From contig OZ245040.1 of assembly GCA_965224195.1 (NCBI GenBank), positions 1,600,001 through 1,664,000 on the forward strand: 64,000 bases of DNA, written 5' to 3'. This DNA comes from Nitrosopumilus sp. Its GTDB lineage: Archaea > Thermoproteota > Nitrososphaeria > Nitrososphaerales > Nitrosopumilaceae. Shown here in pieces: positions 7,801-39,992 of this stretch. Made by a program: the position numbers and the translations under genes. The stretch's first letter is position 1. Each line of letters starts with the position of its first letter. The notes below the pieces were generated by a model. The model ran no database searches, was not told the origin of the DNA, and saw nothing but the letters and a program-made list of their open reading frames with translations.

Positions 7801-10800
7801 TAATGTGTACTCGTAGATTTTTTCAGTATTATAACCTACAACAAACATCTTTGTTCCGTCTGTGTTAAATGCCATGCCTGTTGGATGCGTGTCCTGTGTG
7901 CCTACTGAGACAGAGCTATTTGCATAGGAGGCAGTGGATAAGTCAAAGGGAGTAGTTAATGTGTACTCGTAGATAGCATTATTGGCAGTACCTGCAACAA
8001 ACATCTTTGTTCCGTCTGTGTTAAATGCCATACCTGTTGGATGCGTGTCCTGTAAAGCTACTGGGTAATGGCGTACAAAGGTGGGATTGGATACGTCAAA
8101 GGGAGCATCTAATGTGTACTCGAAGACCTTCTCACTTTGATAACCTACAACAAACATCTTTGTTCCATTTGTGTTGAATGTTACGCTTTCTGGATCCGAC
8201 TCCCTGCTATTTACTGAGAAAGAGTTGTCTGTATAGGAGGCAGTAGACAAGTCAAAGCCCTCGTTTGCTATTATCTCATCAAAAGTTACTGCCAAAACTC
8301 CGGTTTCCTCATTTAGTGTTGCTGAATCAAATGTTGGCGGGATATTATCAGCAGCAAGTGGTGGCGGTGTGCCTGCCCCACCATCTACTACTACTGCAGG
8401 TATATTAAAGGAGGCAGATACAGGAGATGATTCCACAAAATAGTCTGGTCCAATGATCACTGCATATACATGTACATCGTATGACTCACCCGGTGTCAGG
8501 CCTGTTGCCGTATATGAGGTGTCATCTGCAGTGTCGTCGAGTTCAGAATCGTCAGAACTAATGACAGTCAATTGATAACTCACATCATCAATGGTATAAT
8601 ACTCATTGAAATCCACTGTAGGTGCAGCCCAAGTGATTTCAGCGGCTGTGCCGTTTATGACATTGACTAAAAGGTTGGTTGGCGCATCAAGTGGTGGAGG
8701 TAGCGGTATATCAAAGGATACAGCTGCGGCAGGTTGGGAGGACAGAACGGTTGAATCTGACAACAAGGCTTTTGCCTCAACTGTTACCTCATAAGATTTG
8801 CCCACTATCAGGTACGTCGTATGCTCGGTAGTGCCAGCAGGCACGGTATGCTGTACGCTGGTGCCAGCAGCAACATCAATGACATACACGATATAGGATA
8901 CGGAATTAATATCATAGAATGAATTGGCCGGTATTACAGGTGCAGTCCAGATGATGTCAACGGCTGTGGTAAATACATCCACTGAAAGGCCAGTTGGCGC
9001 AGCAAGTGGTGGTGGTACTGCTGCTACACTGTTAGTTACTGCAATGATATTGTCATATGATGCGAGAATCTCATTACCTGAAACATCAGATACAGCTGCT
9101 GCCAAGATGTCCAGTTCTGGGGTAGTCAATGCAATTACTGACTGTAATTGAGGTGCAGTCATCTTGATCTCTATGGAGGTGCTGTTGCCGACAGTTTCAA
9201 TGCTGGCACTGCTCAGTACCGTGCCGGTACCATTAACACTTCCCGACTCACTGATGAGCAGTTTGGATAGATCAACTGGAGTAGACAATGCATACTCGTA
9301 GACACGATTATGTTGAGCACCTACAACAAACATCTTTGTTCCAGCAGGGTTGAATGCCACGCCTCTTGGAGACGTGTCCTGTGTACCTACTGTGAGAGTG
9401 TCTGTATGGGAGACATTGGATAAGTCAAAGGGAGTAGATAATGTGTACTCGTAGATAGCATTATTGGTACTACCTGCAACAAACATCTTTGTTCCAGCCG
9501 GGTTAAATGCCACGCCTTCTGGACCCGTGTCCTGTGTACCTACTGAGAAAGAGCTATTTGCATAGGAGGCAGTGGATAAGTTAAAGGGAGTAGATAATGT
9601 ATACTCGTAGATTTTTTCAGTATTATAATCTACAACAAACATCTTTGTTCCGTCTGGGTTAAATGCCACATCATGTGGAGACGTGGCCTCTGAAGATACT
9701 GAGAAATTGCGTGTATGGGAGACATGGGATAAGTCAAAGGGAGTAGTTAATGTGTACTCGTAGATAGCATTATTGGTATTACCTGCAACAAACATCTTTG
9801 TTCCATTTGTGTTAAATGCCATACCTGTTGGATGCGTGTCCTGTAAAGCTACTGGGTAATGGCGTACAAAGGTGGGATTGGATACGTCAAAGGGAGCATC
9901 TAATGTGTACTCGAAGACCTTCTCACTTTGATAACCTGCAACAAACATCTTTGTTCCATTTGTGTTGAATGTTACGCTTTCTGGATCCGTGTCCTTGTTA
10001 TCTACTGAGAAAGAATTGTCTGTATAGACGGCAGTAGACAAGTCAAAGCCCTCGTTTGCTATTATCTCATCAAAAGTTATTGCCAAAACTCCGGTTTCCT
10101 CATCTAGTGCGGCTGACTCGAAGGTTGGCGGGGTATTGTCAGCAGCAAGTGGTGGCGGTGGTGATACTACCGCTACACTGTTAGTTACTACAATGGCATT
10201 GTCATATGATGCGAGAATCTCATTACCTGAAACATCAGATACTGCCGCTGCCAAGATGTCCAGTTCTGGAGTAGTTAATGCAAGGGCTGACTGTAATTGA
10301 AGTGCAGTAAGCTTGATCTCTATGGAGGTGCTGTTGCCGACAGTTTCAATGCTGGCACCGCTCAGTGCCGTGCCGGTACCATTAACACTTGCTAACTCAC
10401 TGATGAACAGTTTTGACAGGTCAACTGGAGTGGTTAATGCATACTCGTGGATATTCCCGCCATCATTACCTACAACAAACATCTTTGTTCCAGCAGGGTT
10501 AAATGCTACATCTGCCGGAATCTCGTCCCGTGCAGATACTGAGAAAGTGCCTGTATGGGAGACATTGGATATGTCAAATGGAGTAGTTAATGTGTACTCG
10601 TAGACATTGTCACTACCATAACCTACAACAAACATCTTTGTTCCAGCCGGGTTAAATGCCACACCTGACGGAGTACCCTCCCGTACCCCTATTGAGAAAG
10701 TGCCTGTATGGGAGGCAGTAGATACGTTAAAGGGAGTAGATAATGTGTACTCGTAGACAGCACCATTATTAGAACCTACAACAAACATCTTTGTTCCAGC

Positions 10801-11403
10801 CGGGTTGAATGCCACGTCTTCTGGATACGTGGCCTCTGAAGATACTGAGACATTGCGTGTATAGGAGGCAGTGGATAAGTTAAAGGGAGTAGTTAATGTG
10901 TACTCATTGACCTTTTCACTGTCAGTACCTATAACAAACATCTTTGTTCCAGCTGGGTTAAATGCCACGTCTTCTGGGGTGTCTTCCTTTAAAGATACTG
11001 AGAAATCGCGTTTATAGTCGGAGGAGGATACGTCAAAGGGAGTAGTTAATTCGTACTCGTAGATTTTGCCAGTACTAGAACCTGCAACAAACATCTTTGT
11101 TCCGTCTGGGTTAAATGCTACACCTGTTGGATCCGAGTCCTTGTTAGATACTGAGAAAGAGTTGTCTGTATAGTCAGCAGTAGACAGATCAAAGCCCTCG
11201 TTTGCGATTATCTCATTAAAAGTTATTGCCAAAACTCCGGTTCCCTCATCCAGTGCTGCTGACTCGAAGGTTGGCGGGGTGCTGTCAGGTGTAACTGCAA
11301 CAGGACTGCCCGGTGATGGTGCCTGTGCAGACACAAGAGACATGCCAGACAATGCAAGAACTGAGAAAAGCAAAAACAGCAAAAAGACACTCTTTGGAGC
11401 CAT
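1852..11403 (-). CDS. Giant secreted surface protein (3183 aa): four beta-propeller modules, several FN3 domains, Ala/Gln linker, C-terminal domain
   Basis: Signal peptide MAPKSVFLLFLLFSVLALSG; repeated blades FNPAGTKMFVVG..IYEYTLSTPFDLS; FN3 motifs APTNL..ITWTAP..TGLTPGESY. Confidence 0.85.
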   Translation of the reverse strand: MAPKSVFLLFLLFSVLALSGMSLVSAQAPSPGSPVAVTPDSTPPTFESAALDEGTGVLAITFNEIIANEGFDLSTADYTDNSFSVSNKDSDPTGVAFNPDGTKMFVAGSSTGKIYEYELTTPFDVSSSDYKRDFSVSLKEDTPEDVAFNPAGTKMFVIGTDSEKVNEYTLTTPFNLSTASYTRNVSVSSEATYPEDVAFNPAGTKMFVVGSNNGAVYEYTLSTPFNVSTASHTGTFSIGVREGTPSGVAFNPAGTKMFVVGYGSDNVYEYTLTTPFDISNVSHTGTFSVSARDEIPADVAFNPAGTKMFVVGNDGGNIHEYALTTPVDLSKLFISELASVNGTGTALSGASIETVGNSTSIEIKLTALQLQSALALTTPELDILAAAVSDVSGNEILASYDNAIVVTNSVAVVSPPPPLAADNTPPTFESAALDEETGVLAITFDEIIANEGFDLSTAVYTDNSFSVDNKDTDPESVTFNTNGTKMFVAGYQSEKVFEYTLDAPFDVSNPTFVRHYPVALQDTHPTGMAFNTNGTKMFVAGNTNNAIYEYTLTTPFDLSHVSHTRNFSVSSEATSPHDVAFNPDGTKMFVVDYNTEKIYEYTLSTPFNLSTASYANSSFSVGTQDTGPEGVAFNPAGTKMFVAGSTNNAIYEYTLSTPFDLSNVSHTDTLTVGTQDTSPRGVAFNPAGTKMFVVGAQHNRVYEYALSTPVDLSKLLISESGSVNGTGTVLSSASIETVGNSTSIEIKMTAPQLQSVIALTTPELDILAAAVSDVSGNEILASYDNIIAVTNSVAAVPPPLAAPTGLSVDVFTTAVDIIWTAPVIPANSFYDINSVSYIVYVIDVAAGTSVQHTVPAGTTEHTTYLIVGKSYEVTVEAKALLSDSTVLSSQPAAAVSFDIPLPPPLDAPTNLLVNVINGTAAEITWAAPTVDFNEYYTIDDVSYQLTVISSDDSELDDTADDTSYTATGLTPGESYDVHVYAVIIGPDYFVESSPVSASFNIPAVVVDGGAGTPPPLAADNIPPTFDSATLNEETGVLAVTFDEIIANEGFDLSTASYTDNSFSVNSRESDPESVTFNTNGTKMFVVGYQSEKVFEYTLDAPFDVSNPTFVRHYPVALQDTHPTGMAFNTDGTKMFVAGTANNAIYEYTLTTPFDLSTASYANSSVSVGTQDTHPTGMAFNTDGTKMFVVGYNTEKIYEYTLTTPFDLSSSSYANRSFAVGSQDTSPTGMAFNPDGTKMFVAGFQHDNIYEYTLTTPFDLSNVSHTDTLSVGSQDNSPRGVAFNPAGTKMFVVGTGSDRVHEYALTTPVDLSKLFISESGSVNGTGTALTGASIETVGNSTSIEIKITAPQLQSVIALTIPELDILEAAVSDVSGNQILALYDNAIAVTNSVAAVLPPPPPLAADNTPPTFESAALDEETGVLAVTFDEIIANEGFDLSTADYTDNSFLVASQDNSPQGVAFSTNGTLMFVVGNQNDSIYEYRLTAPFDVSTAAYADRSFSIHSQDTSPYDVAFNPAGTKMFVVGHTSENIYEYTLSSPFDLSTAAYADRSFSIHSQDSSLYGVAFNPAGTKMFVAGYANEKIYEYTLSSPFDVSSSSYTRDFPVGTQDNSPYGVTFNPAGTKMFVVGSQYDRVYEYALTTPFDLSSSSYTRHFPVGTQDNSPNGVTFNPAGTKMFVVGAQHNRVYEYALTTPVDLSKLLISESASVNGTGTALSGASIETVGNSTSIEIKLTAPQLQSALALTTPELDIMAAAVSDVSGNAIAAALNNAIAVTNSVAAVPAPPLAAPTGLSVAVSGTTATITWTAPAIPANSFYDISNVSYLVNVTDTAAGTTVPYTVPAGTTTTHTATNLTPGKSYEVTVEATALLSDSTVLSSQPTAAVSFAVSEPPSLDAPTNLSVAVSGTTATITWTAPTVVVNEYYTINDVSYQVTVVDSDGSGAASSGSITGTSYTATGLTPGESYNVYVVAYAVVGSSYTVESVEVSASFNMPAAAVVVVDSGAGTPPSADQIKVQNLEIEKTGNKRVTLTWKAPANSGDKVLDYYSISYNCPATHGTKYTEIHTGFTSVSIDDLDINGICRFQVTPIYPSGGGVNSLIFPGGDGGVTDKGLSAPLKDIPFTETPKDIQLTAAMNGSDAIKVSWLSISSDIVFYELSLGDGDDSRGLVPLKDFKYEDDRPTSQIIKNVDPGRTYTIYLVLYNYEGSVHSTTFIKYTVPVDSIPPKLESAALDEETGVLTITFDEIIANEGLSTTAPFDLSKLFISESGSANGTGTALTGASIETVGNSTSIEIKLTESQRLAVIALTVPELDILEAAVFDVSGNQIVAALNNAIAVTNSVQPPSLDAPTNLLVNVINGTAAEITWTAPAIPANPFYDINSVSYLVNVTDTDAGTTVPYTISDGTTTTHTATNLIPGKSYNASVKALVLLDSGDDLESSATAVSFDMPTPPSLAAPTNLSVNVINGTAAEITWTAPAIPANSFYDINSVSYLVNVTDTAAGTTVPYTISDGSTTTHTATNLIPGKSYEVTIEAKALLSDSAVLSSQPTAAVSFAVSEPPSLDAPTNLLVSVINGTTATITWTAPTVDVNDFYTINNVTYQVTVVDSDGSGAAASSGSITGTSYTATGLTPGKSYNVFVVADAAVGSTYTVQSSAVSASFDMPAAADAQAADAQAAAAQAAADAQAAADAQAAAAQAAADAQAAADAQAAADAAAQAAADAQDMADDIVPAPVVVTVNAAMYNSTAILLTWTQPPSLEVTGYDLSWVSENANGDPHTGGYISLDGVIGGTLESHIFNNVNPGETYYFTLSVFFNVEGSPQPFGSYDVTYTVPDPNADPLKDHKKKRSTGSSNEHYKKPTFGLSHLTESLIVNDGMCLNDSCVDVVSWHTKYPEDKILIDTTNYLQAKMYTDNTLRYVEFFFGVPRPGDASNAEVFVKVSLSRNYTSPNNYDVVRIDTTDTEGLLDGTVTAATIQPSKCLSADAQPNCHTVTLQFDFNEAPIHRAFAIAAVDMDRRVHTNYFNDGFVVLGESLNPADMHHVANSGKYHSNEYASTHQLTLTQTDRAKNLWADQWGFAWTQNDHGTWLQLERDEFVRYQDDISSVMTRTNSNYDSMISHERDRALQHAKNMYGSIYDKPSSDLAEPVTIWIVPSPTNKLQNPEILDAMKLEEAKAMSYLQHMVRADMSRK
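3250..3430 (-). repeat. Coding 15/18-bp tandem repeat (QAAADA)n
   Basis: Repeated gcttgggcatctgctgct units. Confidence 0.9.
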
Positions 11404-11490
11404 GGCTACAAAGACTCCGTCATCGTCATGCCATCAAGAAAGGCAGGACTTTGGGCTACAAAATATTCAGGCAATGGGAGTCTCGCTTCT

Positions 11491-11523
11491 GCACGCACGC
11501 ACACGCACACACACCCCCCCCCC
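11491..11523. repeat. (GCAC)/(AC) microsatellite plus C10 tract upstream of giant gene 1
   Basis: gcacgcacgcacacgcacacacacccccccccc, about 90-120 bp before the start at 11403. Confidence 0.85.
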
Positions 11524-11735
11524 AAATCAGTGATAGGCAAGATATAAGCAATATGCACATATTAACCAGAAAACACATGTATTTAATCATTTTGTAATCT
11601 GGGTTTTGCCAGCTTGTCTTGTCTTAAATTCTTGAAAAGAGGACTGGAACAACAGTCCAAGCGTTAGTATTTGACACTAGAGTATGCTCATCTAAGGTAA
11701 GGCATAAGCGCATATGAAACAGCAGACTGTCACAA

Positions 11736-12140
11736 TTGAACTGTGACGGGTTTGCAAATAAATGCCGCATTGCATATGATGTTCACAATGAGAAAATAAA
11801 TGACTTGGTAATGCGTTCTGCATGCGGTGCAGAGTTTCAAAATTATACGGCATATATTTACGAGACTGTATCTGTCAGTATAATTGCGTCAGTCAAGGGG
11901 GACTTTGACTTTGCATGTGCTGTTGTGGCCGTTTTGAGCAGACAGTACGCCAGATACCAGTCAATAGCATATCTGGACAACTTTGCAGGAGCAAAAGACT
12001 TGACAGTTCATTATTTCCCAGAGAAGGGCAGGGCTGCAGCTGATGAGTACATTGCAGTGAATCACCCAGACTTTGAAAGAATAGACATGTCAGAAATTGA
12101 ATCCATTGCTGCAAAGTTTCTGAAAAGATGCCAGTCTTGA
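11736..12140 (+). CDS. Hypothetical protein
   Basis: 134-aa ORF filling the gap between the two giant genes; no motif recognised. Confidence 0.5.
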   Translation: MNCDGFANKCRIAYDVHNEKINDLVMRSACGAEFQNYTAYIYETVSVSIIASVKGDFDFACAVVAVLSRQYARYQSIAYLDNFAGAKDLTVHYFPEKGRAAADEYIAVNHPDFERIDMSEIESIAAKFLKRCQS

Positions 12141-12262
12141 GGGCAGCAAATTATAGAGGCTAAAAACACATGCCGTGATAAATCCTGCGACCAGGGGTTT
12201 TTTTACATCTTTATAAATTCAAAAAACTTGCAACGTGTCCTGCTGCAAATCAAACTTTAGAA

Positions 12263-15200
12263 CTATTTTTTCTTTATTATTTCAAAATAATAAACAATGG
12301 CAGCAAACACAACGACAAAAAATATTATTGAAATTATTAGTAATTCACTCATCGATAGTTTAGGTGCAACAGGTTCAGGTGTTGGTTCAGGTGTGTATAC
12401 AGGCTCTGGTGTGTATACAGGCTCTGGTGTGTATACAGGTTCAGGTGTGTATACAGGTTCAGGTGTTGGTTCAGGTGTGTATACAGGTTCTGGTGTTAGC
12501 TCTGGTGTGTATACAGGTTCCGGTGTTGGCTCTGGTGCTCTGACAGATGACGGCCTGTTGTCCCTGCCGACAATGTCTTTTAACAGTTCATCCAAATTCA
12601 TATTATCATAATATACTATGCCAGGCAGTTCCTTCAGTATGATGTGGCCATCACAGTATGCCGCAGCAGATTCTACCTGTGCCTGTTTTTGTGATTTGTC
12701 GTAACTTTTTATCGACATTACATTTTCAGAAAGCATCTCTAAACCCTCAAAGCTAAACGCATATAGAGAGATGGGTACGTGCACGGACTTGAGAAGATCC
12801 TTCATGCTGGCCTGGGATGTCATATCAATGCCAACATTGGATGGATGCCCGTCCAAGACAATGGAGGCGCCAAGGTTGTCCCCATATGTACCTGCAACTA
12901 GTACCACATCATTTTCCAGTCCGCACTGGTTGTACAGTAGTAGTATTGGACTCATTGTAAAACCTACAGAGCCGCTGCTGCTGCTGCCACGGTCAGCAGG
13001 CTGTGGTGTAGTAGGCTGTGGTGCGATGGGTTTTGGTGTGATGGGTTTTGGTGGCAAGGCATCCTCTGGTATTTCTTTAGGAGTGCTGTCAATTACTGCA
13101 GTATCTAGTTCAACACTGACTGCATCTTCAATGACAATAGGATCCCTTACGGCAAGTACTAGGCTGTCATCCTTCTTCACCACATCTGCACCATCTGATG
13201 TTGGGATGTCATCAGCTAGTGACTTGGTGTGCTGCACTGCCGTACCATCAGGTGTAGAGCTGGTATTCTTTGTTACATCCACGCCGTCTGATGTTGGAAT
13301 ATTGTCAGCCAGTGATTTGACATATTGCTTGGTTACAGAGATACCATCAGATGTTGGAATGTCATCAGCTAGTGACTTGGTGTGCTGCACTGCCGTGCCA
13401 TCAGGTGTCAAGCTGGTATTCTTTGTTACATCCACGCCGTCTGATGTTGGAATATTGTCAGCCAGTGATTTGACATATTGTTTGGTTACAGAGATATCAT
13501 CAGATGTTGGGGCTTCATCAGATGTAGATATGGCATATAGTTTCACTACATCTGCATTGTCCCTTGTTGGGATGTCATCAGATATGGATCTAGAGTACCG
13601 CTTTACCACATCTGCACCATCTGATGTTTTGATAACATCAGCTAGAGATTTTACATATTGCTTTGTTACATTCACATCATCAGATGTTGGGATAGTATCA
13701 GATGGAGATATGGCATATTGTTTCACTACATCTGCACCATCAGATGTTGGAATGGTGTCAGCTGGAGATATGGCATATTGTTTCACCACATCTGCACCAT
13801 CTGATGTTGGAATGGTGTCAGCTGGAGATATGGCATATTGTTTCACCACATCTGCACCATCTGATGTTTGGATGTCATCAGCTAGTGATTTGACATATTG
13901 TTTGGTTACAGAGATACCATCAGATGTTGGAATGGTGTCAGCTGGAGATATGGCATATTGTTTCACTACATCTGCACCATCTGATGTTGGAATATTGTCA
14001 GCTAGTGATTTGACATATTGTTTGGTTACAGAGATACCATCAGATGTTGGAATGGTGTCAGCTGGAGATATGGCATATTGTTTCACTACATCTGCACCAT
14101 CTGATGTTTGGATGTCATCAGCTAGTGATTTGACATATTGTTTGGTTACAGAGATACCATCTGATGTTTGGATGTCATCAGATGGAGATATGGCATATTG
14201 TTTCACCACATCAACTGCGTCCTTTGATGGAGCTGCATCAGATGGAGATATGGCATACAGTTTCACTACATCTGCACCATCTGATGTTTTGATAATATCA
14301 GCTAGAGACTTTGCATATTGCTTTGTTACATCTACTACATCTGATGTTAGGATAGTATCAGATATGGATTTGACATATTGTTTGGTTACAGAGATATCAT
14401 CAGATGTTGGAGCTTCATCAGATGTAGATATGGCATATAGTTTCACTACATCTGCATTGTCCCTTGTTGGGATGTCATCAGATATGGATTTGACATATTG
14501 TTTGGTTACAGAGATATCATCAGATGTTGGGATAGTATCAGCTGCTAAGCTGGCATACAGTTTCGCCACAACCGCACCATCAGATGTTGGGATAGTATCA
14601 GCTGCTAAGCTGGCATACAGTTTCGCCACAACCGCACCATCAGATGTTGGGATAGTATCAGATATGGATTTGACATATTGTTTGGTTACAGAGATATCAT
14701 CAGATGTTGGAATTGTATCAGATGTAGATATGGCATATAGTTTCACTACATCTGCATTGTCCCTTGTTGGGATGTCATCAGATGTAGATCTAGAGTACCG
14801 CTTTACCACATCTGCATCATCTGATGTTGGAGCTTCATCAGATGTAGATATTGCATATAGTTTCACTACATCCGCATCATCTGATGTTTGGATGTCATCA
14901 GATATGGATTTGACATATTGTTTGGTTACAGAGATATCATCAGATGTTGGGATAGTATCAGATGTAGATCTAGAGTACCGCTTTACCACATCTGCACCAT
15001 CTGATGTTTGGATGTCATCAGCTAGTGATTTGACATATTGTTTGGTTACAGAGATACCATCAGATGTTGGAATATTGTCAGATGGAGATATTGCATATTG
15101 TTTCACTACATCTGCACCATCTGATGTTGGAATATTGTCAGCCAGTGATTTGACATATTGCTTGGTTACAGAGATATCATCAGATGTTGGAGCTTCATCA

Positions 15201-18200
15201 GATGTAGATATTGCATACAGTTTCACTACATCAACTGCGTCCTTTGATGGAACTGCATCAGATGGAGATATGGCATACAGTTTCACTACATCCGCATTGT
15301 CCCTTGTTGGGATGTCATCAGATATGGATCTAGAGTACCGCTTTACCACATCTGCACCATCTGATGTTTGGATGTCATCAGATATGGATTTGACATATTG
15401 CTTGGTTACATCCACATCATCAGATGTTGGAATTGTATCAGATATGGATCTAGAGTACCGCTTTACCACATCTGCACCATCTGATGTTTGGATGTCATCA
15501 GATATGGATTTGACATATTGTTTGGTTACATCCACATCATCAGATGTTGGAATTGTATCAGATATGGATCTAGAGTACCGCTTTACCACATCTGCACCAT
15601 CTGATGTTTGGATGTCATCAGATATGGATTTGACATATTGTTTGGTTACATCCACATCATCAGATGTTGGAATTGTATCAGATATGGATCTAGAGTACCG
15701 CTTTACCACATCTGCATCATCTGATGTTGGAGCTTCATCAGATGGAGATATGGCATACAGTTTCACTACATCAACTGCGTCCTTTGATGGAATTGTATCA
15801 TATGGAGATATGGCATACAGTTTCACTACATCTGCATCATCTGATGTTGGGATGGTGTCAGCTGCTAAGCGGGCATACAGTTTCGCCACAACCGCACCAT
15901 CAGATGTTAGGATAGTATCAGATGGAGATATGGCATACAGTTTCACTACATCCGCATTGTCCCTTGTTGGGATGTCATCAGATATGGATTTGACATATTG
16001 TTTGGTTACAGAGATATCATCGGATGTTGGGATGGTGTCAGATGGAGATATGGCATACAGTTTCACTACATCAACTGCGTCCTTTGATGGAATTGTATCA
16101 GATGGAGATATGGCATACAGTTTCACTACATCTGCACCATCTGATGTTTTGATAATATCAGCTAGAGACTTTGCATATTGCTTTGTTACATCTACTACAT
16201 CTGATGTTTGGATGTCATCAGATATGGATTTGACATATTGTTTGGTTACAGAGATATCATCGGATGTTGGAGCTTCATCAGATGTAGATATGGCATATAG
16301 TTTCGCCACATCTGCATTGTCCCTTGTTGGGATGTCATCAGCTAGTGATTTGACATATTGTTTGGTTACAGAGATACCATCAGATGTTGGAGCATCATCA
16401 GATGTAGATATGGCATATAGTTTCGCCACATCTGCATTGTCCCTTGTTGGGATGTCATCAGATATGGATTTGACATATTGTTTGGTTACAGAGATACCAT
16501 CAGATGTTTGGATGTCATCAGATATGGATTTGACATATTGTTTGGTTACAGAGATACCATCAGATGTTTGGATGTCATCAGATATGGATTTGACATATTG
16601 TTTGGTTACAGAGATACCATCAGATGTTTGGATGTCATCAGATATGGATTTGACATATTGTTTGGTTACAGAGATACCATCAGATGTTTGGATGTCATCA
16701 GATATGGATTTGACATATTGTTTGGTTACAGAGATACCATCAGATGTTTGGATGTCATCAGATATGGATTTGACATATTGTTTGGTTACAGAGATACCAT
16801 CAGATGTTTGGATGTCATCAGATATGGATTTGACATATTGTTTGGTTACAGAGATACCATCAGATGTTTGGATGTCATCAGATATGGATTTGACATATTG
16901 TTTGGTTACAGAGATACCATCAGATGTTTGGATGTCATCAGATATGGATTTGACATATTGTTTGGTTACAGAGATACCATCAGATGTTTGGATGTCATCA
17001 GATGGAGATATGGCATACAGTTTCATCACATCAACTGCGTCCTTTGATGGAGCTGCATCAGATGGAGATATGGCATACAGTTTCATCACATCTGCATCGT
17101 CCCTTGTTGGGATGTCATCAGCTGGAGATATGGCATACAGTTTCATCACATGGTGCAAAGTAGACGCTATTGAATCCCTGATTACTGCCCTGTCAGACGC
17201 ATATACTGTGTGGTGTTTGACGGCTGATGCCGCATCCCTGATCACTGCCCTGTCAGACGCATATACTGTGTGGTGTTTGACGGCTGATGCCGCATCCCTG
17301 ATCACTGCCCTGTCAGACGCATATACTGTGTGGTGTTTGACGGCTGATGCCGCATCCCTGATCACTGCCCTGTCAGACGCATATACTGTGTGGTGTTTGA
17401 CGGCTGATGCCGCATCCCTGATCACTGCCATGTCAGGCACGGTGTAGTTTTTTCTAACCGATGCAGAATCCGATACGGTTATTTTGTCAGGTTCGGTTTG
17501 TACATCGACATACAATGCCAGGGGTGCATCATCAGAGTCCATCTTGTTCCCATGCATGTCATAGACGCCCCCGACAATGCGGAGTTCGTCCATAGAGTTA
17601 TCCAAAGTTCGTTTCAGTTGATTGTCAGTTAGCCTTATACGCAAGTCAGTACCGTCAGCAGACGTGGCTTTCTGTGCGCCATCAAGGGGCGCCTCCAGGT
17701 CTTTATGTGTCGCCCTTATTGTCATCTTAGAAAGATCAATTCTGGAGACATCTATTGCCTCACTGAATCTTACAAGCAGCTCGCCGGATCTCTTGTCCAG
17801 CATTGCCGGGATCATCGGCATGTGTGTAAGGTCAAATATGATCACGCTGTCTGACCCGCGAAAAGTGGCTGCGGCATATGTTCTGGGGCCGACAGTCATG
17901 ATTGAAACGTCACTTGCAATGGCTGTATCATCACCAATGTGCCGGTATGACATATACAGCCAGTCGCCGTATATCTTGTAATTTTTCGGATCTGTTATGT
18001 CAATTACCTGAATGCCCTGGTCTGTTTTGGCACTTGTAATGGCATAGACTTTGGAGTCAATACTGGCAACGGCGACTGCATTGTTGGCGTTTTCGGGCTT
18101 TGCAATGTGGGGAATAAACGCATGTGTCGTGAATGGCTTTTTGGGATCAGTAATGTCAATCATCTGAATGTTTTTGTCGCTGGCCAGATCCACTACTGCA

Positions 18201-19233: not shown

Positions 19234-19980
19234 TTACGGGAGCATATCAAACGTGTATGTGATCTGAACTGTCTCGCCTGTGTTTACTATGACATCAGTT
19301 ATGGCCACTGATGCAAGCAGAATTCCGCCGTTTTTGTTACAGTTGTTAAAAGCATTGTTATCTGCTGACTCGTTGCTGCATATGCCTATGCCAGTTATTG
19401 TAGTGGCATCTGCAAAGTTTGTGCCATCAGCTGCAAACGTGAGAGGCCCTATGGTGGCTGTCTGGCCAGAATAGGTAACTGCATTATCCTGCATGCAGTT
19501 GTCTGTTGTCAGGCCGTTGGCCTGATCAAAACTGCTTGCGGTGTTACCTGCAGCTGGTGCAAAAGAACTTTGGTCAGTTACGCATATTGAGCCCACCCTG
19601 ACGTTGTCTGCAATGTCTGTTCCGCCGTCCTCAAATATTGATTGCAGGATATAGTCTGCACCCTCTTCTGTAAGAAGATTGGGGGACGTCTGGGTCAGCA
19701 TGACATTGCCGGAGCTGTCATACTTTGTGAGCGATATCACGCCGCTTGCCTTTATTGCGTCATTGGCTATGTCGTCTGCAAATAGCGTCTTTGACTGTAC
19801 ATCAGGATCAGATGTATTGCCTGTATCAAGTGCTGTTCCTAACCCTGGCATGTCTTTTGCAGGCTTCAACTGTACATCAAGATCAGATGTATTGCCTGTA
19901 TCAAGTGCTGAGGCGGCAACAAAGACTGCCAAGGCTGCAACTGCCATTGACGAATACAAGACTGCATTCTTTTTCTTCAT
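19234..19980 (-). CDS. Secreted beta-rich protein resembling phage tail-fibre/baseplate-proximal domains; partner of the giant repeat protein
   Basis: Signal peptide; pattern GVISLTKYD..NLLTEEGADYIL...TITGIGI...ILLASVAITDVIVNTGETVQITYTF. Confidence 0.6.
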   Translation of the reverse strand: MKKKNAVLYSSMAVAALAVFVAASALDTGNTSDLDVQLKPAKDMPGLGTALDTGNTSDPDVQSKTLFADDIANDAIKASGVISLTKYDSSGNVMLTQTSPNLLTEEGADYILQSIFEDGGTDIADNVRVGSICVTDQSSFAPAAGNTASSFDQANGLTTDNCMQDNAVTYSGQTATIGPLTFAADGTNFADATTITGIGICSNESADNNAFNNCNKNGGILLASVAITDVIVNTGETVQITYTFDMLP

Positions 19981-25863: not shown

Positions 25864-26153
25864 GTTATGGCATAGTTATAGTATAATATATATCTTATAT
25901 CATAACATATGGCATAGCAAATCATATATTACAATATATCTTATAGTGTAAATATGCCAATACGCATAATAAAATGTGAATGCGGACATGAATTTGCAAC
26001 CAAAAAAAATCCAAAGCAGGTCTTGCAATGCAGCAAGTGTGGGATTCATTTTTGCAGGTGTGAGAAAACCTGAATTTTTGAGATCAGTTGCTTATCCTTG
26101 TGAAAGTTCGATTCAAATTAGCTTTCTTTTTTCAAAGCTCCGTTTCCTACTTT

Positions 26154-26333
26154 GTTTTAATGGGGCCTCACCAGGAGGTGAGGAAATTATGAGCCTGTTT
26201 GCTTGCTCTAGCTTCAATATTTTGCTTCAATGGGACCGTAACTTTTTCGTTACGGAAAAGCGTTCTCTCTGAATATCACAACGTGGACAACGCAACACCT
26301 TCAATGGGACCGTAACTTTTAATTATGAATAAT
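26154..26333 (-). CRISPR. Orphan mini CRISPR array: 3 repeats of two types, 2 spacers; type I-G (I-U)-like repeat
   Basis: 26224 GCTTCAATGGGACCGTAACTTTTTCGTTACGGAAA; 26298 CCTTCAATGGGACCGTAACTTTT (then degenerate); 26154 GTTTTAATGGGGCCTCACCAGGAGGTGAGGAAAT; periods 70 and 74 bp; 7-bp stems. Confidence 0.75.
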
Positions 26334-27549: not shown

Positions 27550-28761
27550 TTAGTTATGTTTTGCCGTCTCAATGTATAAAACAACAGCAATAAACACAAC
27601 TAGAAAAGATACTATTGAAATTATTAGTAATTCACTCATCGATAGTTTAGGTTCAACAGGTTCTGGTGTTGGTTCAGGTGTGTATACAGGTTCTGGTGTT
27701 GGTTCAGGTGTGTATACAGGTTCTGGTGTTGGTTCAGGTGTGTATACAGGTTCTGGTGTTGGTTCAGGTGTGTATACAGGTTCTGGTGTTGGTTCAGGTG
27801 TGTATACAGGTTCTGGTGTTGGTTCAGGTGTGTATACAGGTTCTGGTGTTGGTTCAGGTGTGTATACAGGTTCTGGTGTTGGTTCAGGTGTGTATACAGG
27901 TTCAGGTGTTGGTTCAGGTGTGTATACAGGTTCAGGTGTTGGTTCTGGTGTTGGTTCTGGTGTTGGTTCTGGTGTTGGTTCTGGTGTTGGTTCTGGTGTT
28001 GGTTCTGGTGTTGGTTCTGGTGTTGGTTCTGGTGTTGGTTCTGGTGTTGGTTCTGGTGTTGGTTCTGGTGTTGGTTCTGGTGTTGGTTCTGGTGTTGGTT
28101 CTGGTGTTGGTTCTGGTGTTGGTTCAGGTGTTGGTTCTGGTGTTGGTTCTGGTGTTGGTTCTGGTGTTGGTTCTGGTGTTGGTTCTGGTGTTGGTTCTGG
28201 TGTTGGTTCTGGTGTGTATACAGATTCTGGTGTTGGTTCAGGTGTGTATACAGATTCGGGTGTTGGTTCAGGTGTTGGTTCAGGTGCTCTGACAGATGAT
28301 GGTCTGTTGTCCCTGCCGACAATGGCCTTTAACAGTTCATCCAAATTCATATTATCATAATATACTATGCCAAGCAGTTCCTTCAGTATGATGTGGCCAT
28401 CACAGTATGCCGCAGCAGATTCTACCTGTGCCTGTTTTTGTGATTTGTCGTAACTTTTTATCGACATTACATTTTCAGAAAGCATCTCTAAACCCTCAAA
28501 GCTAAACGCATATAGAGAGATGGGTACGTGTACGGACTTGAAAAGATCTTTCATGCTGGCCTGGGATGTCACGTCAATGCCGGCATTGGATGGATGCCCG
28601 TCTAAGACAATGGAGGCGCCAAGGTTGTCCCCATATGTACCTGCAACTAATACCACATCATTTTCCAGTCCGCACTGGTTGTACAGTAGTAGTATTGGAC
28701 TCACAAGAAAAGAACCATCGTTTTGAACTAGGATATCAGCAATAGAAGTAAAAGAATACAA
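27550..28761 (-). pseudogene. Orphan duplicate of the C-terminal anchor region of 12263..19228 with an expanded PEPT linker
   Basis: 28703-28280 is nearly identical to 12954-12530; no signal peptide; IS end lies just upstream. Confidence 0.8.
27655..28285. repeat. 30-bp ([10 protein letters not shown]) and 12-bp (PEPT) coding tandem repeats
   Basis: ggttctggtgtt units and ggttcaggtgtgtatacaggttctggtgtt units. Confidence 0.95.
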
Positions 28762-35196: not shown

Positions 35197-36978
35197 TTAT
35201 TCATCTTCAAAATAGGAATCATTCATTTCTTCATTTGGTCTTAAATCGTTCCAAAGAACAAATATTCTATATAAATCACTTTTCTCTTTATCATTACATA
35301 GTATTTTGATTTTGTTTATTTCATCACATTGTGTTTGTGAGAGATAAAACTTATGTCTATCAAACCAATACATTATGTCATGATATTCTTCACTGTCAAG
35401 AATTTTTTCTTCAGATTGAATTCTTAATTTATTCAAATATTTCTCAATTTCATTTTTTTTAATTTTAGGTAATAATTCCGGATATAAATCGACCATGCCA
35501 TCTTCTGATATGATTACTGCTACACATTTTTTGTTATTCTTTTCAACATATTTGACTGCTGAATTATATCTTGCACCTCTTGCAGAATTCCCTTTATTTG
35601 TAGCAATACCATCTAATATTACCCCTATTGAATGACAAATACTATGTGTATCAAGTATCACTGCACCGTCAATTGAAGTCACATTTCTTACCAATGATTC
35701 ATTTAACATAGTTGATTCAATGTTTATTGATTGATTTGCTAATCTAACGGCTTCTTTTTCTGCTTCATTTGAAATAATCAATAACGCACCATGCTTTTGT
35801 ATCATCGCAGTATCTACTATTTTTCTTAAATTTTCAATATCTTTTATTGAAATATTTACAAATACACGTTTTAACAAATCTTCAAAAACTTCCTGTTTGA
35901 TTTTTACTTTCGGTATTCTGGGATTTGTGTGTTCTACTATTAACATAGTGTGATTTCCATGCTCCAGTTCCCATTTATGAGAACCGCTGAAATTGACTTT
36001 TGCAAGATCTTGATTCTTTTTATCATATTCTCCTTTCATCTTGCCTAGTCCCAAAATTTCTAATCCGTTACTACACAATGACAAATCTCTTGCTGCAATT
36101 TCTAACAATTTTCGAATTTTTCTGTATTCCGATAATTTGACAGGAATTGCTAATTTTATAGATAATTCTAGATTTGGATGTGTTTCTTTACAAACAATCA
36201 TCTTTCCTATACTTGAATCTCCTTCGTATTTTAACGAAGAAACATAATTGCATGTATTCAAAAATTGCCAAGGTTCCCTTGATTCACATACTGTAGATAT
36301 TACTGAACTGACAAAATTTGATGCTGCAATTCTCATTACTTCTTTTTTATCTGTCCTGATGAATTGTGGATCTGTAGCTGCTCTTGGCCTATACATTGTA
36401 TCTAATGACTCTTCTAAAAATGCCCGTATTAGAGAATCAAGCAATGATACATTCGAAAACCTATCTGTTTTCTTTAATCCGTAAAATGAATCGTAGATAT
36501 TTTCTTCAAATTGTAATATTATAAAAATTTCATAACCTTCAAGATGCACAGATTGAGATACAAATGATATTATTTTTTCTCTTTCAAAATTTTCATCTAT
36601 TAATTGCTGTACTGCACTTCGTACAGAGTCTCTTTTTATTTTGTTATGGTGATTTTCATGAATGTATGGCATTCCATGAAATATGTTTCGCCTTCCATCT
36701 TTCTCCCAAATTGAATTGGTCACATTATCTACATTATTAAATAATTCAATATTAACTCCACAATCTTCTGGTTGTATGCAAACAGGATATTGAATATGTT
36801 TTATCTCTTCTTTTTTATCTCGCAAAATCCCTAACAAAAATACTTTGGGTTTTAATTTTGATGAAATTTCTTGAAATAATTCATTGGCATATAATTGGAG
36901 TGAGCCTTGTGTTGAATGTTGATGTGCCCACATAAAATATTGTAAGGGAGTACCGTAATCTCTAATACCGTCAAACAT
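35197..36978 (-). CDS. DisA_N/DAC (diadenylate-cyclase-like) domain protein with a long N-terminal region
   Basis: KHGALLII, SIDGAVILD, GVILDG, SARGARYNSA, VIISEDG. Confidence 0.85.
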   Translation of the reverse strand: MFDGIRDYGTPLQYFMWAHQHSTQGSLQLYANELFQEISSKLKPKVFLLGILRDKKEEIKHIQYPVCIQPEDCGVNIELFNNVDNVTNSIWEKDGRRNIFHGMPYIHENHHNKIKRDSVRSAVQQLIDENFEREKIISFVSQSVHLEGYEIFIILQFEENIYDSFYGLKKTDRFSNVSLLDSLIRAFLEESLDTMYRPRAATDPQFIRTDKKEVMRIAASNFVSSVISTVCESREPWQFLNTCNYVSSLKYEGDSSIGKMIVCKETHPNLELSIKLAIPVKLSEYRKIRKLLEIAARDLSLCSNGLEILGLGKMKGEYDKKNQDLAKVNFSGSHKWELEHGNHTMLIVEHTNPRIPKVKIKQEVFEDLLKRVFVNISIKDIENLRKIVDTAMIQKHGALLIISNEAEKEAVRLANQSINIESTMLNESLVRNVTSIDGAVILDTHSICHSIGVILDGIATNKGNSARGARYNSAVKYVEKNNKKCVAVIISEDGMVDLYPELLPKIKKNEIEKYLNKLRIQSEEKILDSEEYHDIMYWFDRHKFYLSQTQCDEINKIKILCNDKEKSDLYRIFVLWNDLRPNEEMNDSYFEDE

Positions 36979-37087: not shown

Positions 37088-37904
37088 ATGAATAATACAA
37101 TTTACAATAATTTCATGCAATTTACAGAACTGACTGACAAGCAATGGAAAATGACAGACCGGCACATCTCAAAACCTGCTACTACAGGACATCCACAAAG
37201 CAATGACAGAATGGTTTTAAACGGAATCATCCATGTTTTGATTTCTGGATACAGGTGGAGTGAGATGCCAAAAAAATACGGCGATGATTCAACTGCCAAT
37301 CTGAGATTACACAAATGGTAGCAAAAGGGAATTTGGAAAAGGATTCTCAAATGTGTAATAAAATCTGCACATAAACAAAACAAGGTTAATCTGAAAAAAA
37401 TATCAGCTGGTTCATCATCAATTCCAAACAAAAAAGGGGCAGCATGATTAGGTATGACGGGTTCAAAAGAACGGCAGGCACAAAGATACATGTTGCAGCA
37501 GATGGTGGCGGTTTGCCAATTTCAATTAGAACCAGTTTTGCAAATATTCATGACAGTACGAAATTCATTGATGTGATGGAAAACATTTCAGAATGTTTGG
37601 ATGGATTCATGATGGAAGAAATTGTGGCAGCCTGTGCTGAGAAGGTATATGACAGTATGACAATCAAAAATTATCTGAGAGACAGAAGCATCATTCCATG
37701 TATTCCAAAAAGAAACTTCAAGAAAACCAATAAAAAAAAATACAGTTACAAAAACTACAAGATTTGTAGTTGAGGGATTCTTTGCTTGGCTCAAAAATGG
37801 ATTCCATAGAACAACAATCAGATATGAAAGAGTAGCAGAAAATTATCTGGCATTTGTTAACATTACATCATTTTTGATGTATTGCAGGGTTTTGAGATGA
37901 GTTG
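37088..37904 (+). mobile_element. IS5-family (IS427/IS1031-like) element, inactivated
   Basis: ELTDKQW..GYRWSEMPKKYG; internal TAG at 37319; A6G4 slippery site; GTKIHVAAD; right TIR GTTTTGAGATGAGTTG at 37889-37904. Confidence 0.85.
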
Positions 37905-38101
37905 ATCTTACAGAAGAACTTGGGAGTGGCATTGACGATATCATCACAACTACTGATTGTTTTATTGCAACATTGGATTATTTGGAACGTGGGTAGAGGA
38001 ATACTCATGCCAATTAATGTGAATTTCAGATTAGTTGGATCTTTAGGCATAAACATCATTTTTCGAAAATTTATAAGGCATATGATGTATACTATACACA
38101 A

Positions 38102-38248: not shown

Positions 38249-38776
38249 TTGTCTAAACCTGAAATTGATTTTGATAAAATAGTAGTCACACGTCTTAGTG
38301 AAACCACTGTTGGTATTGATAGCTTTAAGAATTCAAAACAAGAAATGGTAGATCATATTCAAAAGGAAGCACTTAGAGATCAACATCTAAAAATTGGAAC
38401 TACTTGGGTTTGGGTTTATGATAATAAAATTGCGCTGGGATATATTTCACTTGCAATGTATTCAATAGATAAAAAAGACATTCTACATAATCAAGATGAA
38501 TCAGCACAAAAATATCCATATGGGACTATTCCTTCTTTATTAATTGGTCAAATTGCAACTCATCATGATTATGAGTGTAATAAAATTGGACAATCTATGG
38601 TTTCTTGGGCAATTAAACAGGCATTTGAATATTCAAAAGAAGTTGGTTGTAGAACTGTTGCGCTTCATCCACATGAAGATGTAATTGAATGGTATAGTAA
38701 GAAATTAAAATTCAAACATATCAAAAGAGACAACAAACAAGATGTAATGTATTTCAACCTTCTAAAAAAATCTTAA
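38249..38776 (+). CDS. GNAT acetyltransferase, AtaT/TacT-like toxin
   Basis: GYISLA, KYPYGTIPSLLIGQIATHHDY..KIGQSMV, EVGCRTVAL, WYSKKLKF. Confidence 0.8.
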   Translation: MSKPEIDFDKIVVTRLSETTVGIDSFKNSKQEMVDHIQKEALRDQHLKIGTTWVWVYDNKIALGYISLAMYSIDKKDILHNQDESAQKYPYGTIPSLLIGQIATHHDYECNKIGQSMVSWAIKQAFEYSKEVGCRTVALHPHEDVIEWYSKKLKFKHIKRDNKQDVMYFNLLKKS

Positions 38777-39036: not shown

Positions 39037-39992
39037 CAACTCATCTCAAAACAGATCATTTAGTGAATAATTGATGATCTATGAACAACAATATCTCAAA
39101 TCAATTCATGAAATTCAAAGAATTGACAGGCAAACAGTGGGAAATGATGGAATCATGTGTTCCTCCACCTGCAAAAACTGGCAGGCCAAGAGATGCAGAC
39201 AGAAAAATCATCAACGGAATCATTTATGTTCTGACAACTGGATGCAGATGTGATGACATGCCAAAAAAATACGGCGATGACTCCACTGCAAACAGGAGAT
39301 TAAACTCTTGGCAGCAGAAAGGAATCTGGAAAAAGATTCTCAAATGTATAACTGCATCTGCAAACAAATCAGGCAAGCTAAACCTACAAAAGATATCAGT
39401 TGACTCATCATCAATTCCTGCCAAAAAAGGGAGAGATGTCATAGGATTTGACGGATTCAAGAAAATAACAGGCACAAAAATACATGTTGCAGCAAGTAAA
39501 AGAAAGAGCTAAAGAAAGACAAAAAATACAAGAAAATAACAGGCACAAAAATACATGTTGCAGCAGGGCAAAACGGCTTGCCAGTATCAATTGTGTGCAG
39601 TCCTGCAAATATTCATGACAGTACAAAATTCATTGACGTTATGGAACCTGTTTCAGATTTTGTAGATTGTAATTCCATCAGACAGATTGTATCTTGCTTT
39701 GCAGACAAGGGCTATGATGCAAAGTACATCAGAAATTACCTGAGAGACAGCGGCATTGATTATTGCATTCCATACAAAAAGAATTCAAGGATTATTTTAC
39801 AAGACAACATACAAAATAACGGTTGCAGCAATTACAACAAGACAAGATTTGTTGTAGTGAAGAGATTCCTTGCTTGGCTGAAGAATGGATCTCATAGGAC
39901 AGGAATCAGATACGAAAAGAGCTGTGAGAATTATTTATCATTTGTTTGCTTGGCATCAATTCTGATGTATTGGGGGGTATTGGGATGAGTTG
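39037..39992 (+). mobile_element. IS5-family element with 16-bp TIRs; transposase disrupted
   Basis: CAACTCATCTCAAAAC / GTATTGGGATGAGTTG (14/16); VDSS, ADKGYD, IRYEK motifs; 71-bp insertion at 39495-39565. Confidence 0.9.

Follow-up and report, generated by a model that had tools for sequence, protein, structure and literature searches.

The DNA analysed here, referred to as the window, is a stretch of 64,000 nucleotides from a Nitrosopumilus chromosome (C1:1600001-1664000 of a 2.07-Mb genome with 33.6% G+C in two contigs). Within it lies an IS5-family insertion sequence whose transposase gene is interrupted by 71 added bases, made up of a 34-bp insert and one extra copy of a 37-bp segment. 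The features of the element are given below in window positions.

39037..39992, + strand: IS5-family element of about 885 bp when the added 71 bp are left out, with 16-nt imperfect terminal inverted repeats
39081..39512, + strand: N-terminal transposase fragment of 143 aa from the list of open reading frames (Pfam DUF4096, E 7.7e-22), with its stop codon inside the insert
39458..39494, + strand: first copy (copy 1) of the target duplication, 37 bp as observed, which may really comprise 36 bp with one further base matching by chance
39495..39528, + strand: 34-bp spacer-like insert that occurs once in the genome and whose length is inside the ranges of the array spacers
39529..39565, + strand: second copy (copy 2) of the target, without differences from the first
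39578..39988, + strand: C-terminal transposase fragment (DDE domain) from the list of open reading frames (Pfam DDE_Tnp_1, E 9.9e-12)

A split transposase and its empty paralogues

The element belongs to the IS5 family by its DUF4096 and DDE transposase domains, its terminal inverted repeats and its occurrence in multiple copies. The arms of the inverted repeat (39037-39052 and 39977-39992) are 88% complementary, and many paralogues are found in the Nitrosopumilus genome studied as well as in its relatives.

Direct comparison of 39458-39494 with 39529-39565 gives the same 37-mer with no mismatch, and the 34 bases between the two copies are unrelated to it. Neither neighbouring base is shared by the copies: on the left there is T at 39457 against A at 39528, on the right A at 39495 against G at 39566, and hence the duplication as observed is exactly 37 bp. 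These sharp borders bear out the first-pass annotation, which had described a perfect 37-bp direct duplication around an unrelated 34-bp insert. The insert has an A-rich, low-complexity sequence. It occurs only once in the 2.07-Mb genome, where the next best match, 18/19 bases, is at chance level; it is not derived from adjacent sequence, as template switching would require.

The 71 bases (37 + 34) are not divisible by three, so that the C-terminal fragment is out of frame with the N-terminal one. The transposase is thus split in two by a frameshift together with a stop codon. When the 71 bp are removed in silico, a single open frame of 279 codons replaces those of 144 and 162, which confirms the earlier proposal that the insertion had frameshifted the element. 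In the paralogous copies, the 37-mer or its homologue is single, and the alignment is colinear except for a gap of 71 bp. Three of these empty copies are:

window 37.4 kb: empty paralogous copy with a single 37-mer homologue and a 71-bp gap
C1:1227 kb: empty paralogous copy with one copy of the identical 37-mer
relative G007: empty paralogous copy with one copy and a 71-bp gap

The first of them had been noticed in the first-pass annotation as carrying one 37-mer and no insert, and the colinear alignment agrees. In a search of 30 relatives, the insert is crossed by no relative's match among the matches listed, only by that of the genome itself. An orthologue of the flanks of the window's copy was not found in the relatives, and consequently the empty sites for this footprint are paralogous only.

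Public sequencing data contain the same structure. In three runs from two studies, assembled pieces agree at every base with 39465-39558 (or up to 39565), each holding 30 bases of copy 1, the entire insert and at least 30 bases of copy 2. The check in reads that had been proposed thus places the insert between both copies. Further pieces connect the 37-mer copies with the unique flanks; none spans from flank to flank, since those assemblies were built on 31-letter words, shorter than the 37-bp repeat. The breakage of these pieces at the 37-mer copies leaves some room for an assembly or sequencing artefact. Nevertheless, an artefact would have to join the unique 34-mer to the copies on both sides in each of the three runs, and to produce the same structure at 35-43 places of this genome and again in that of another species; its probability is almost negligible. 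The depth over the insert is below that of the flanks in two runs (447 against 633/669, and 99 against 175/165, or 58-71%) and not in the third, which could reflect a mixed population or a composition bias. The best-matching runs may represent the sample that yielded the genome. In one raw-read run, the insert is covered by about two reads. An allele lacking the insert would yield no 31-letter word of its own.

CRISPR modules and the dimensions of the footprint

Three working CRISPR arrays are present in the genome, at distances of 133 kb to 930 kb and none inside the window:

C1:707205-713740: array 1, 90 repeats of 36 nt with the end ATTGAAGC; spacers of 34-42 nt, mostly 36-37
C1:942056-946529: array 2, 68 repeats of 30 nt; spacers of 32-39 nt
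C1:1457181-1466783: array 3, 132 repeats of 37 nt with the end ATTGAAAC; spacers of 32-48 nt, mostly 35-36

Three cas1 and three cas2 genes score above the Pfam cut-offs and are free of internal stops, and each pair adjoins one array. A lack of cas1 in the lineage, which the first-pass annotation had counted as fatal to its reading, is therefore not the case. According to NCBIfam typing, module 1 is of type I-G, with a 556-aa Cas4g/Cas1g fusion, Csb2, Cas3g, Cas7g and the 36-nt repeat. Module 2 consists of the type I-B adaptation genes Cas4, Cas1b and Cas2, and module 3 is I-B-like, with Cas7/Csh2, Cas5b, Cas3, Cas1, Cas2, Cas4 and the 37-nt repeat. One further feature of this kind lies in the window, separate from the footprint:

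26152..26333, - strand: orphan mini-array, degenerate, with repeats of the type I-G kind

Two of its segments resemble the 36-nt repeat, 26224-26259 at 32/36 positions and 26298-26333 at 24/36. The "nearby CRISPR repeat" of the first-pass annotation does have this resemblance (32/36), yet it belongs to a degenerate orphan and not to a working array.

The dimensions of the footprint agree with those of the arrays, in the comparison that the first-pass annotation had suggested. The 37-bp duplication has the length of the 37-nt repeat, or of the 36-nt repeat if one base matches by chance, and an insert of 34 or 35 bp falls within the spacer ranges; duplication and insert are thus of the sizes that these integrases produce. 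Spacers of 34 nt make up 12/131 in the 37-nt array and 1/89 in the 36-nt array, and those of 35 nt make up 38/131 and 3/89, respectively. Copy 1 ends with TTGCAGC followed by A, and TTGCAGC matches the TTGAAGC end of the type I-G repeat at 6/7 positions, one base from the border. The register of this heptamer fits a 36-bp duplication with one chance base, and the footprint of 37+34+37 may possibly be split instead as 36+35+36. Compared in register with the 37-nt repeat, the 37-mer shares at most 16/37 positions at offsets of 1, no better than random 37-mers.

A chromosome-wide class of footprints

The footprint in the transposase gene is one of many. Direct repeats were sought along the chromosome at all periods between 40 and 130, with the three arrays and tandem and internally repetitive sequence excluded and isolated pairs kept. 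Only 53 isolated pairs pass this filter chromosome-wide, and an exact isolated 37-bp repeat is accordingly not a chance event. The period is 70-76 in 37/53 and the duplicate is 36-38 long in 26/53. Footprints in which an insert separates two copies number 43 by loose criteria (period 62-90, duplicate of at least 28) and 35 by strict ones (period 66-81, duplicate 30-40), so that the scan for further patterns of this size, suggested in the first-pass annotation, found a whole class. The copies are identical in 24 of the 35 strict footprints; two of these 24 have a 30-bp duplication with inserts of 36 and 39 bp, which fits the 30-nt repeat. The inserts of the footprints are all different, 29-44 bp long, and have neither terminal repeats nor coding capacity. 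A second member lies in the window:

19794..19910, no strand assigned: footprint with a 42-bp duplicate (1 mismatch), a 33-bp insert and a period of 75 (C1:1619794)

The footprints are unevenly distributed. A quarter of the chromosome (C1:173.6-682.1 kb) is free of them, and a slight enrichment is found within 60 kb of an array (14/43 against 18.5% expected, p 0.02). Removal in silico regains a clearly longer frame at seven sites, 39458-39565 included. The period is divisible by three in 16/43, and several such sites lie in frames that remain open. None of the footprints in the genome has gained a third copy and with it a second spacer. Multi-spacer neo-arrays were considered as candidates, and the sole chains detected lie in tandem protein repeats.

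An orthologous empty site was informative for one of the five sibling footprints tested. At C1:1892823, the alignment with the orthologues of four related species (G017, G012, G005 and G031) is colinear except for a 74-bp gap of exactly 37 + 37 bp, that is, one copy and the 37-bp insert. At the other four (L017, L018, L019 and L022), the orthologue in the relatives does not cover the site, or the homology stops at the footprint border.

Three congeners were compared with the same filter, using a sample of 400 kb per genome:

G009: two Cas1 hits; 36- and 30-nt arrays in the sample; 12 strict footprints per 400 kb
G002: no Cas1 hit, and no array seen in the sample; no strict footprint per 400 kb
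G007: no Cas1 hit, and no array seen in the sample; one strict footprint per 400 kb, with a mismatch between its copies

G002, with 52% G+C, is a badly matched control, and G007, with 34.5%, is the better one. The duplications in G009 are of 36 (six), 37 (three), 38, 39 and 30 bp (one each). In this genome, two paralogous copies of one element carry insertions at the same site with different spacers, indicating a sequence-directed choice of target.

A preference for certain targets is also seen at the borders. An orientation-aware model of 42 border positions contains 7.64 bits, against 4.51 +/- 0.26 (maximum 5.18) in 25 random sets. The weight matrix derived from this genome gives the 11 footprints of G009 a mean score of 3.06, against -4.26 at random sites of G009 (Mann-Whitney p 1.3e-5). 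The border motif is real at the level of the class and holds in a second genome. Just outside one border there is a tendency to AG(C/T), which is the leader-side sequence of the 36-nt array on that strand. A heptamer with at most one mismatch to the repeat ends, located 0-2 bases from the border, occurs in 9/35 footprints against 5.4% of random sites (p 7.6e-5), and in G009 in 3/12 footprints against 5.0% of random sites. The footprint at 39458-39565 is among the nine, with TTGCAGC one base from its border. An earlier motif test with the repeat-end octamer over a wide range of offsets had given a weak enrichment (21/43 against 33% of random sites, p 0.02); the octamer and heptamer tests were both framed post hoc, after the sites had been inspected. 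The likeness of GTTGCAGC to ATTGAAGC, which the first-pass annotation had put forward, carries little weight at the single site, as a 6/8 match is found in 33% of random sites under the first scoring; it stands only for the class, by the post hoc figure of 9/35 against 5.4%. In the E. coli experiments of Nivala and colleagues, a repeat-length target is reportedly duplicated and sites resembling array features are preferred.

The origin of the inserts could be traced in part. Eight of the 43 match other chromosomal loci, at distances reaching hundreds of kb, and the identity of the self-matches ends at the borders of the insert, for example at 35/35, 38/38, 36/37 and 38/39. By contrast, none of the 287 array spacers (0/287) matches the genome outside the arrays, and it follows from the two figures that self DNA is often captured. 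This difference fits a selection against self-targeting that operates inside arrays only: a self spacer in an array would lead to cell death, while one at a stray site would be harmless. Between the inserts and the array spacers, only chance matches of 12-13 nt were seen. Counting against the reading as CRISPR integration, no flanking motif is common to the eight self-protospacers, although all three modules carry Cas4, which is usually tied to PAM selection; thus no PAM can be stated. As to the 34-bp insert itself, the proposed search for a protospacer and PAM came back empty: no source was found elsewhere in its own genome, no exact 34-mer match in the viral_contigs and metagenome_contigs collections, no match with up to 3 mismatches in 300 Nitrosopumilaceae genomes, and only chance-level hits to unrelated phages by blastn against phage records (E 0.03 or worse).

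These results also bear on an accident of repair or replication unrelated to CRISPR, in which a staggered break or a template switch would have duplicated 37 bp and left a 34-bp filler. The empty outcome of the protospacer and PAM searches would fit such an accident, the A-rich insert could be untemplated or patchwork filler, and the 37-mer is not significantly repeat-like in register. Nevertheless, an accident leaves unexplained why the pairs gather at periods of 70-76 with duplicates of CRISPR repeat lengths, including the two of 30 bp, and why exact inserts of 35-39 nt were copied from loci hundreds of kb distant. Nor does it account for 12 footprints per 400 kb in the cas1-bearing congener against 0 and 1 in the two without cas1, or for a border motif common to footprints across genomes. 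We consider such an origin very unlikely.

Probable spacer integration outside the arrays and its precedents

The footprint at 39458-39565 was very probably made by off-target spacer integration through the cell's own CRISPR adaptation complex (Cas1-Cas2 with Cas4). The enzymes, the sizes, the class of footprints, the empty sites and the association with cas1 all speak for this reading, which is that of the first-pass annotation. In the proposed mechanism, the complex would insert a captured fragment of spacer size at a non-CRISPR site in the IS5-family transposase gene. The integrase would treat the site like a genuine repeat, attacking the two strands at points about 36-37 bp from each other and joining the 3' ends of the fragment; gap repair would then copy the intervening target and yield target-spacer-target. 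From the structure, the enzymes, the lengths and the class, all directly observed in the genome sequence, we infer that Cas1-Cas2 was the probable catalyst and which module is likely to have acted.

The term "neo-array event" of the first-pass annotation is retained in part. A natural off-target integration fits, but not a neo-array, as there is one spacer, no repeat-like hairpin and no growth. If the locus worked as a neo-CRISPR array, the 37-mers would serve as repeats, be transcribed and processed, and the 34-nt spacer would guide interference. The layout of repeat, spacer and repeat has the right sizes for it, and off-target integration is reported to spawn new arrays in E. coli (Nivala et al. 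2018, as cited in bioRxiv 10.1101/148544). Against it, the 37-mer folds at only -2.2 kcal/mol (z 0.32), compared with -8.2 kcal/mol (z -2.77) for the 36-nt repeat, and it has at most the 16/37 positions mentioned above in common with the 37-nt repeat. A second spacer was acquired at none of the footprints in the genome, several sibling spacers match the host chromosome perfectly and would be lethal if the guides worked, and the stretch appears in no RNA run. The repeat-like hairpin and the second spacer expected of a functional CRISPR array, new or otherwise, are absent at 39458-39565, and a working array here is highly improbable.

Another integrase, either a casposase (a Cas1 homologue) or a transposase with an unusually long target duplication, might also be envisaged. 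Casposons duplicate about 14-15 bp of target, as opposed to the 36-37 seen here. Moreover, the only three Cas1 matches in the genome are all array-adjacent, and the inserts are each different, 29-44 bp long and devoid of terminal repeats and coding capacity; the 34-bp insert without repeats and the purely array-linked Cas1 place the footprint outside the casposons. On the other side, many congeners have Cas1 matches in frames of about 410-450 aa, putative casposases by their size, and family 1 casposons occur in Nitrosopumilus (PMC8464041). The resemblance extends to a Cas1-family integrase, a staggered attack, a target-site duplication and the same archaeal genus, but casposons are multi-kb elements with genes of their own (PMC8464041), and no casposase gene was found in this genome. 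An integrase other than the CRISPR one is extremely unlikely.

Spacer integration away from its proper site has been described in other systems. Off-target integration and "neo-CRISPR" loci were obtained in E. coli type I-E over-producing Cas1-Cas2 (Nivala, Shipman and Church 2018, Nat Microbiol; here after the citing papers bioRxiv 10.1101/148544, PMC7054753, PMC11788318, PMC9456107 and PMC6698737). For two other species, the citing papers mention no more than "circumstantial evidence". The present footprint likewise consists of a spacer-sized fragment at a non-CRISPR chromosomal site. Unlike the laboratory over-production in E. coli, however, the events here are natural and occur in an archaeon with type I-G and/or I-B modules that include Cas4. 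There are 35-43 of them per genome, a second species shows them too, and none has grown into an array.

Similarly, Cas1-Cas2 of Pyrococcus furiosus integrates at non-CRISPR DNA in vitro, at targets with sequence features of the repeat and of the leader-repeat junction, as seen here at the level of the class (PMC6698737). The assay described there employed a plasmid in vitro and a 30-nt repeat, whereas the footprints of Nitrosopumilus are fixed full-site integrations in the chromosome with gap repair complete. Ectopic spacer acquisition is also known from Streptococcus type II-A (PMC7999890 and PMC5338259), again with Cas1-Cas2 integrating away from the leader-proximal repeat. The Streptococcus events take place inside the array and at genuine repeats, in contrast to a transposase gene without a repeat. 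A report of natural genome-wide off-target footprints in Nitrosopumilus or elsewhere was not found in our search, which lay mostly outside subscription journals and supplements.

Taken alone, the footprint at 39458-39565 adds a new natural case to a mechanism known from the laboratory, and off-target integration can here be read straight from sequence, first at one site and then at dozens. The scale of 35-43 scars in one genome, the second species, the self-derived spacers and the common target motif make it worth following up. Through such footprints a hidden cost of CRISPR adaptation, that of gene-breaking insertions, here in a transposase, is given a number. They also provide a naturally formed collection of target sites that can reveal the sequence preferences of the integrase. 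The scan for isolated pairs of copies around an insert, with copies of the genome's own repeat length, is applicable to all prokaryote genomes; such scans could show the frequency of the scars, the CRISPR types responsible and whether an array is ever born in this way.

It is fairly probable that the adaptation machinery of Nitrosopumilus with CRISPR systems, probably the type I-G Cas4-Cas1 fusion together with Cas2, habitually lacks precision and leaves tens of fixed off-target integrations per 2-Mb genome. If true, CRISPR adaptation would act as an insertional mutagen of measurable effect, disrupting genes and mobile elements. The footprints would then be an archive of naive acquisition, with self DNA included and unselected by interference, of a kind that arrays cannot keep.

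As to the module responsible, the type I-G module (Cas4-Cas1 fusion, 36-nt repeat) is somewhat favoured over the I-B-like one (37-nt repeat). The length of the duplication is not rigid: where the protospacer borders fix it, it is 34, 35, 36 and 36 bp, with three further cases of 36 or 37, and length alone cannot name the module. Under a mixture model, the share of events with a 37-bp duplication is 42% (support interval 2-74%). The period of 71 is shared by 12/131 units of the 37-nt array and 3/89 of the 36-nt array, and size thus slightly favours the 37-nt module. Against that module, G009 is without the third cas1 and shows no 37-nt array in the 400 kb sampled, yet it carries duplications of 36-39 bp.

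Footprints across the chromosome and in congeners

The footprints considered here are those in which a repeat-length duplication surrounds a spacer-sized insert, read as off-target Cas1-Cas2 spacer integration. Scanning the whole chromosome contig (C1) of this Nitrosopumilus sp. genome gave 35 isolated footprints under strict settings (period 66–81, duplicate 30–40) and 43 under loose ones (period 62–90, duplicate 28 or more), with inserts of 32–41 bp and duplications of 30 or 34–40 bp. Examples lie at C1 positions 173581, 682088, 739057, 882675, 886994, 898236, 912527, 1326527, 1363425, 1692970, 1745573, 1892823 and 2053230. Nine fall within 882–923 kb, and in two cases (912.5/912.7 kb and 1326.4/1326.5 kb) a pair of neighbouring footprints is separated by less than 200 bp. 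Between 173581 and 682088, a stretch of 508 kb or a quarter of the chromosome, there is none; this gap may reflect a target bias, or a core region kept free of insertions by purifying selection.

In G009, a congener with two Cas1 hits, footprints occur at the same target in two paralogous element copies (L057, C1:1744491; L060, C1:1800775). The common target ends in TTTTGCAGC and the spacers differ between the two, which suggests a recurrent hot spot. In G007, a congener with no Cas1 hit at all, one or two pairs with a period of 72 look like footprints (L108, C1:660163; L100, C1:517108), each with mismatches between the copies. A CRISPR-Cas system since lost may have left them behind.

Second footprint and orphan mini-array in the window

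19794–19910: second footprint, a 33-bp insert flanked by the two copies of a 42-bp segment, one mismatch between copies
26152–26333: degenerate orphan mini-array, type I-G repeat kind

The 42-bp duplication is longer than every CRISPR repeat of this genome, and the excess is not easily explained by chance extension. The mini-array comprises one unit identical at 32 of 36 positions and one partial unit; in its upstream unit the stem seems to have been swapped for a different complementary arm pair. No cas genes adjoin it.

The disrupted IS5-family copy and its surroundings

35197–36978, minus strand: 593-aa protein in which a DAC (diadenylate cyclase) domain is combined with two sensor domains, DACNG and DACNH
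37088–37905: second IS5-family copy, about 70–77% identical, more diverged and degraded
38249–38776: GNAT acetyltransferase gene

The assembled piece bearing the insert of the main footprint (39465–39558) reaches 58–71% of the depth of the unique-flank pieces in two public sequencing runs (X1, X2), where a mixed population or composition bias could be responsible; a third run (X3) has no such deficit. The DAC-domain gene is a neighbour of two IS5-family copies and the acetyltransferase gene, and no counterpart of the region that holds it was found in the relatives searched. In the second IS5-family copy the target of the main footprint is present once, and other defects split the ORF into 77 aa and 109 aa.

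Tandem coding repeats

Very long tandem coding repeats occupy 3250–17440 and 27650–28290 of the window, and probably encode giant repetitive surface proteins. A 60-bp unit is repeated about 61 times at 13467–17137; the others are several blocks built from 153–156-bp units, and a Gly/Ser-rich unit of 12/30 bp.
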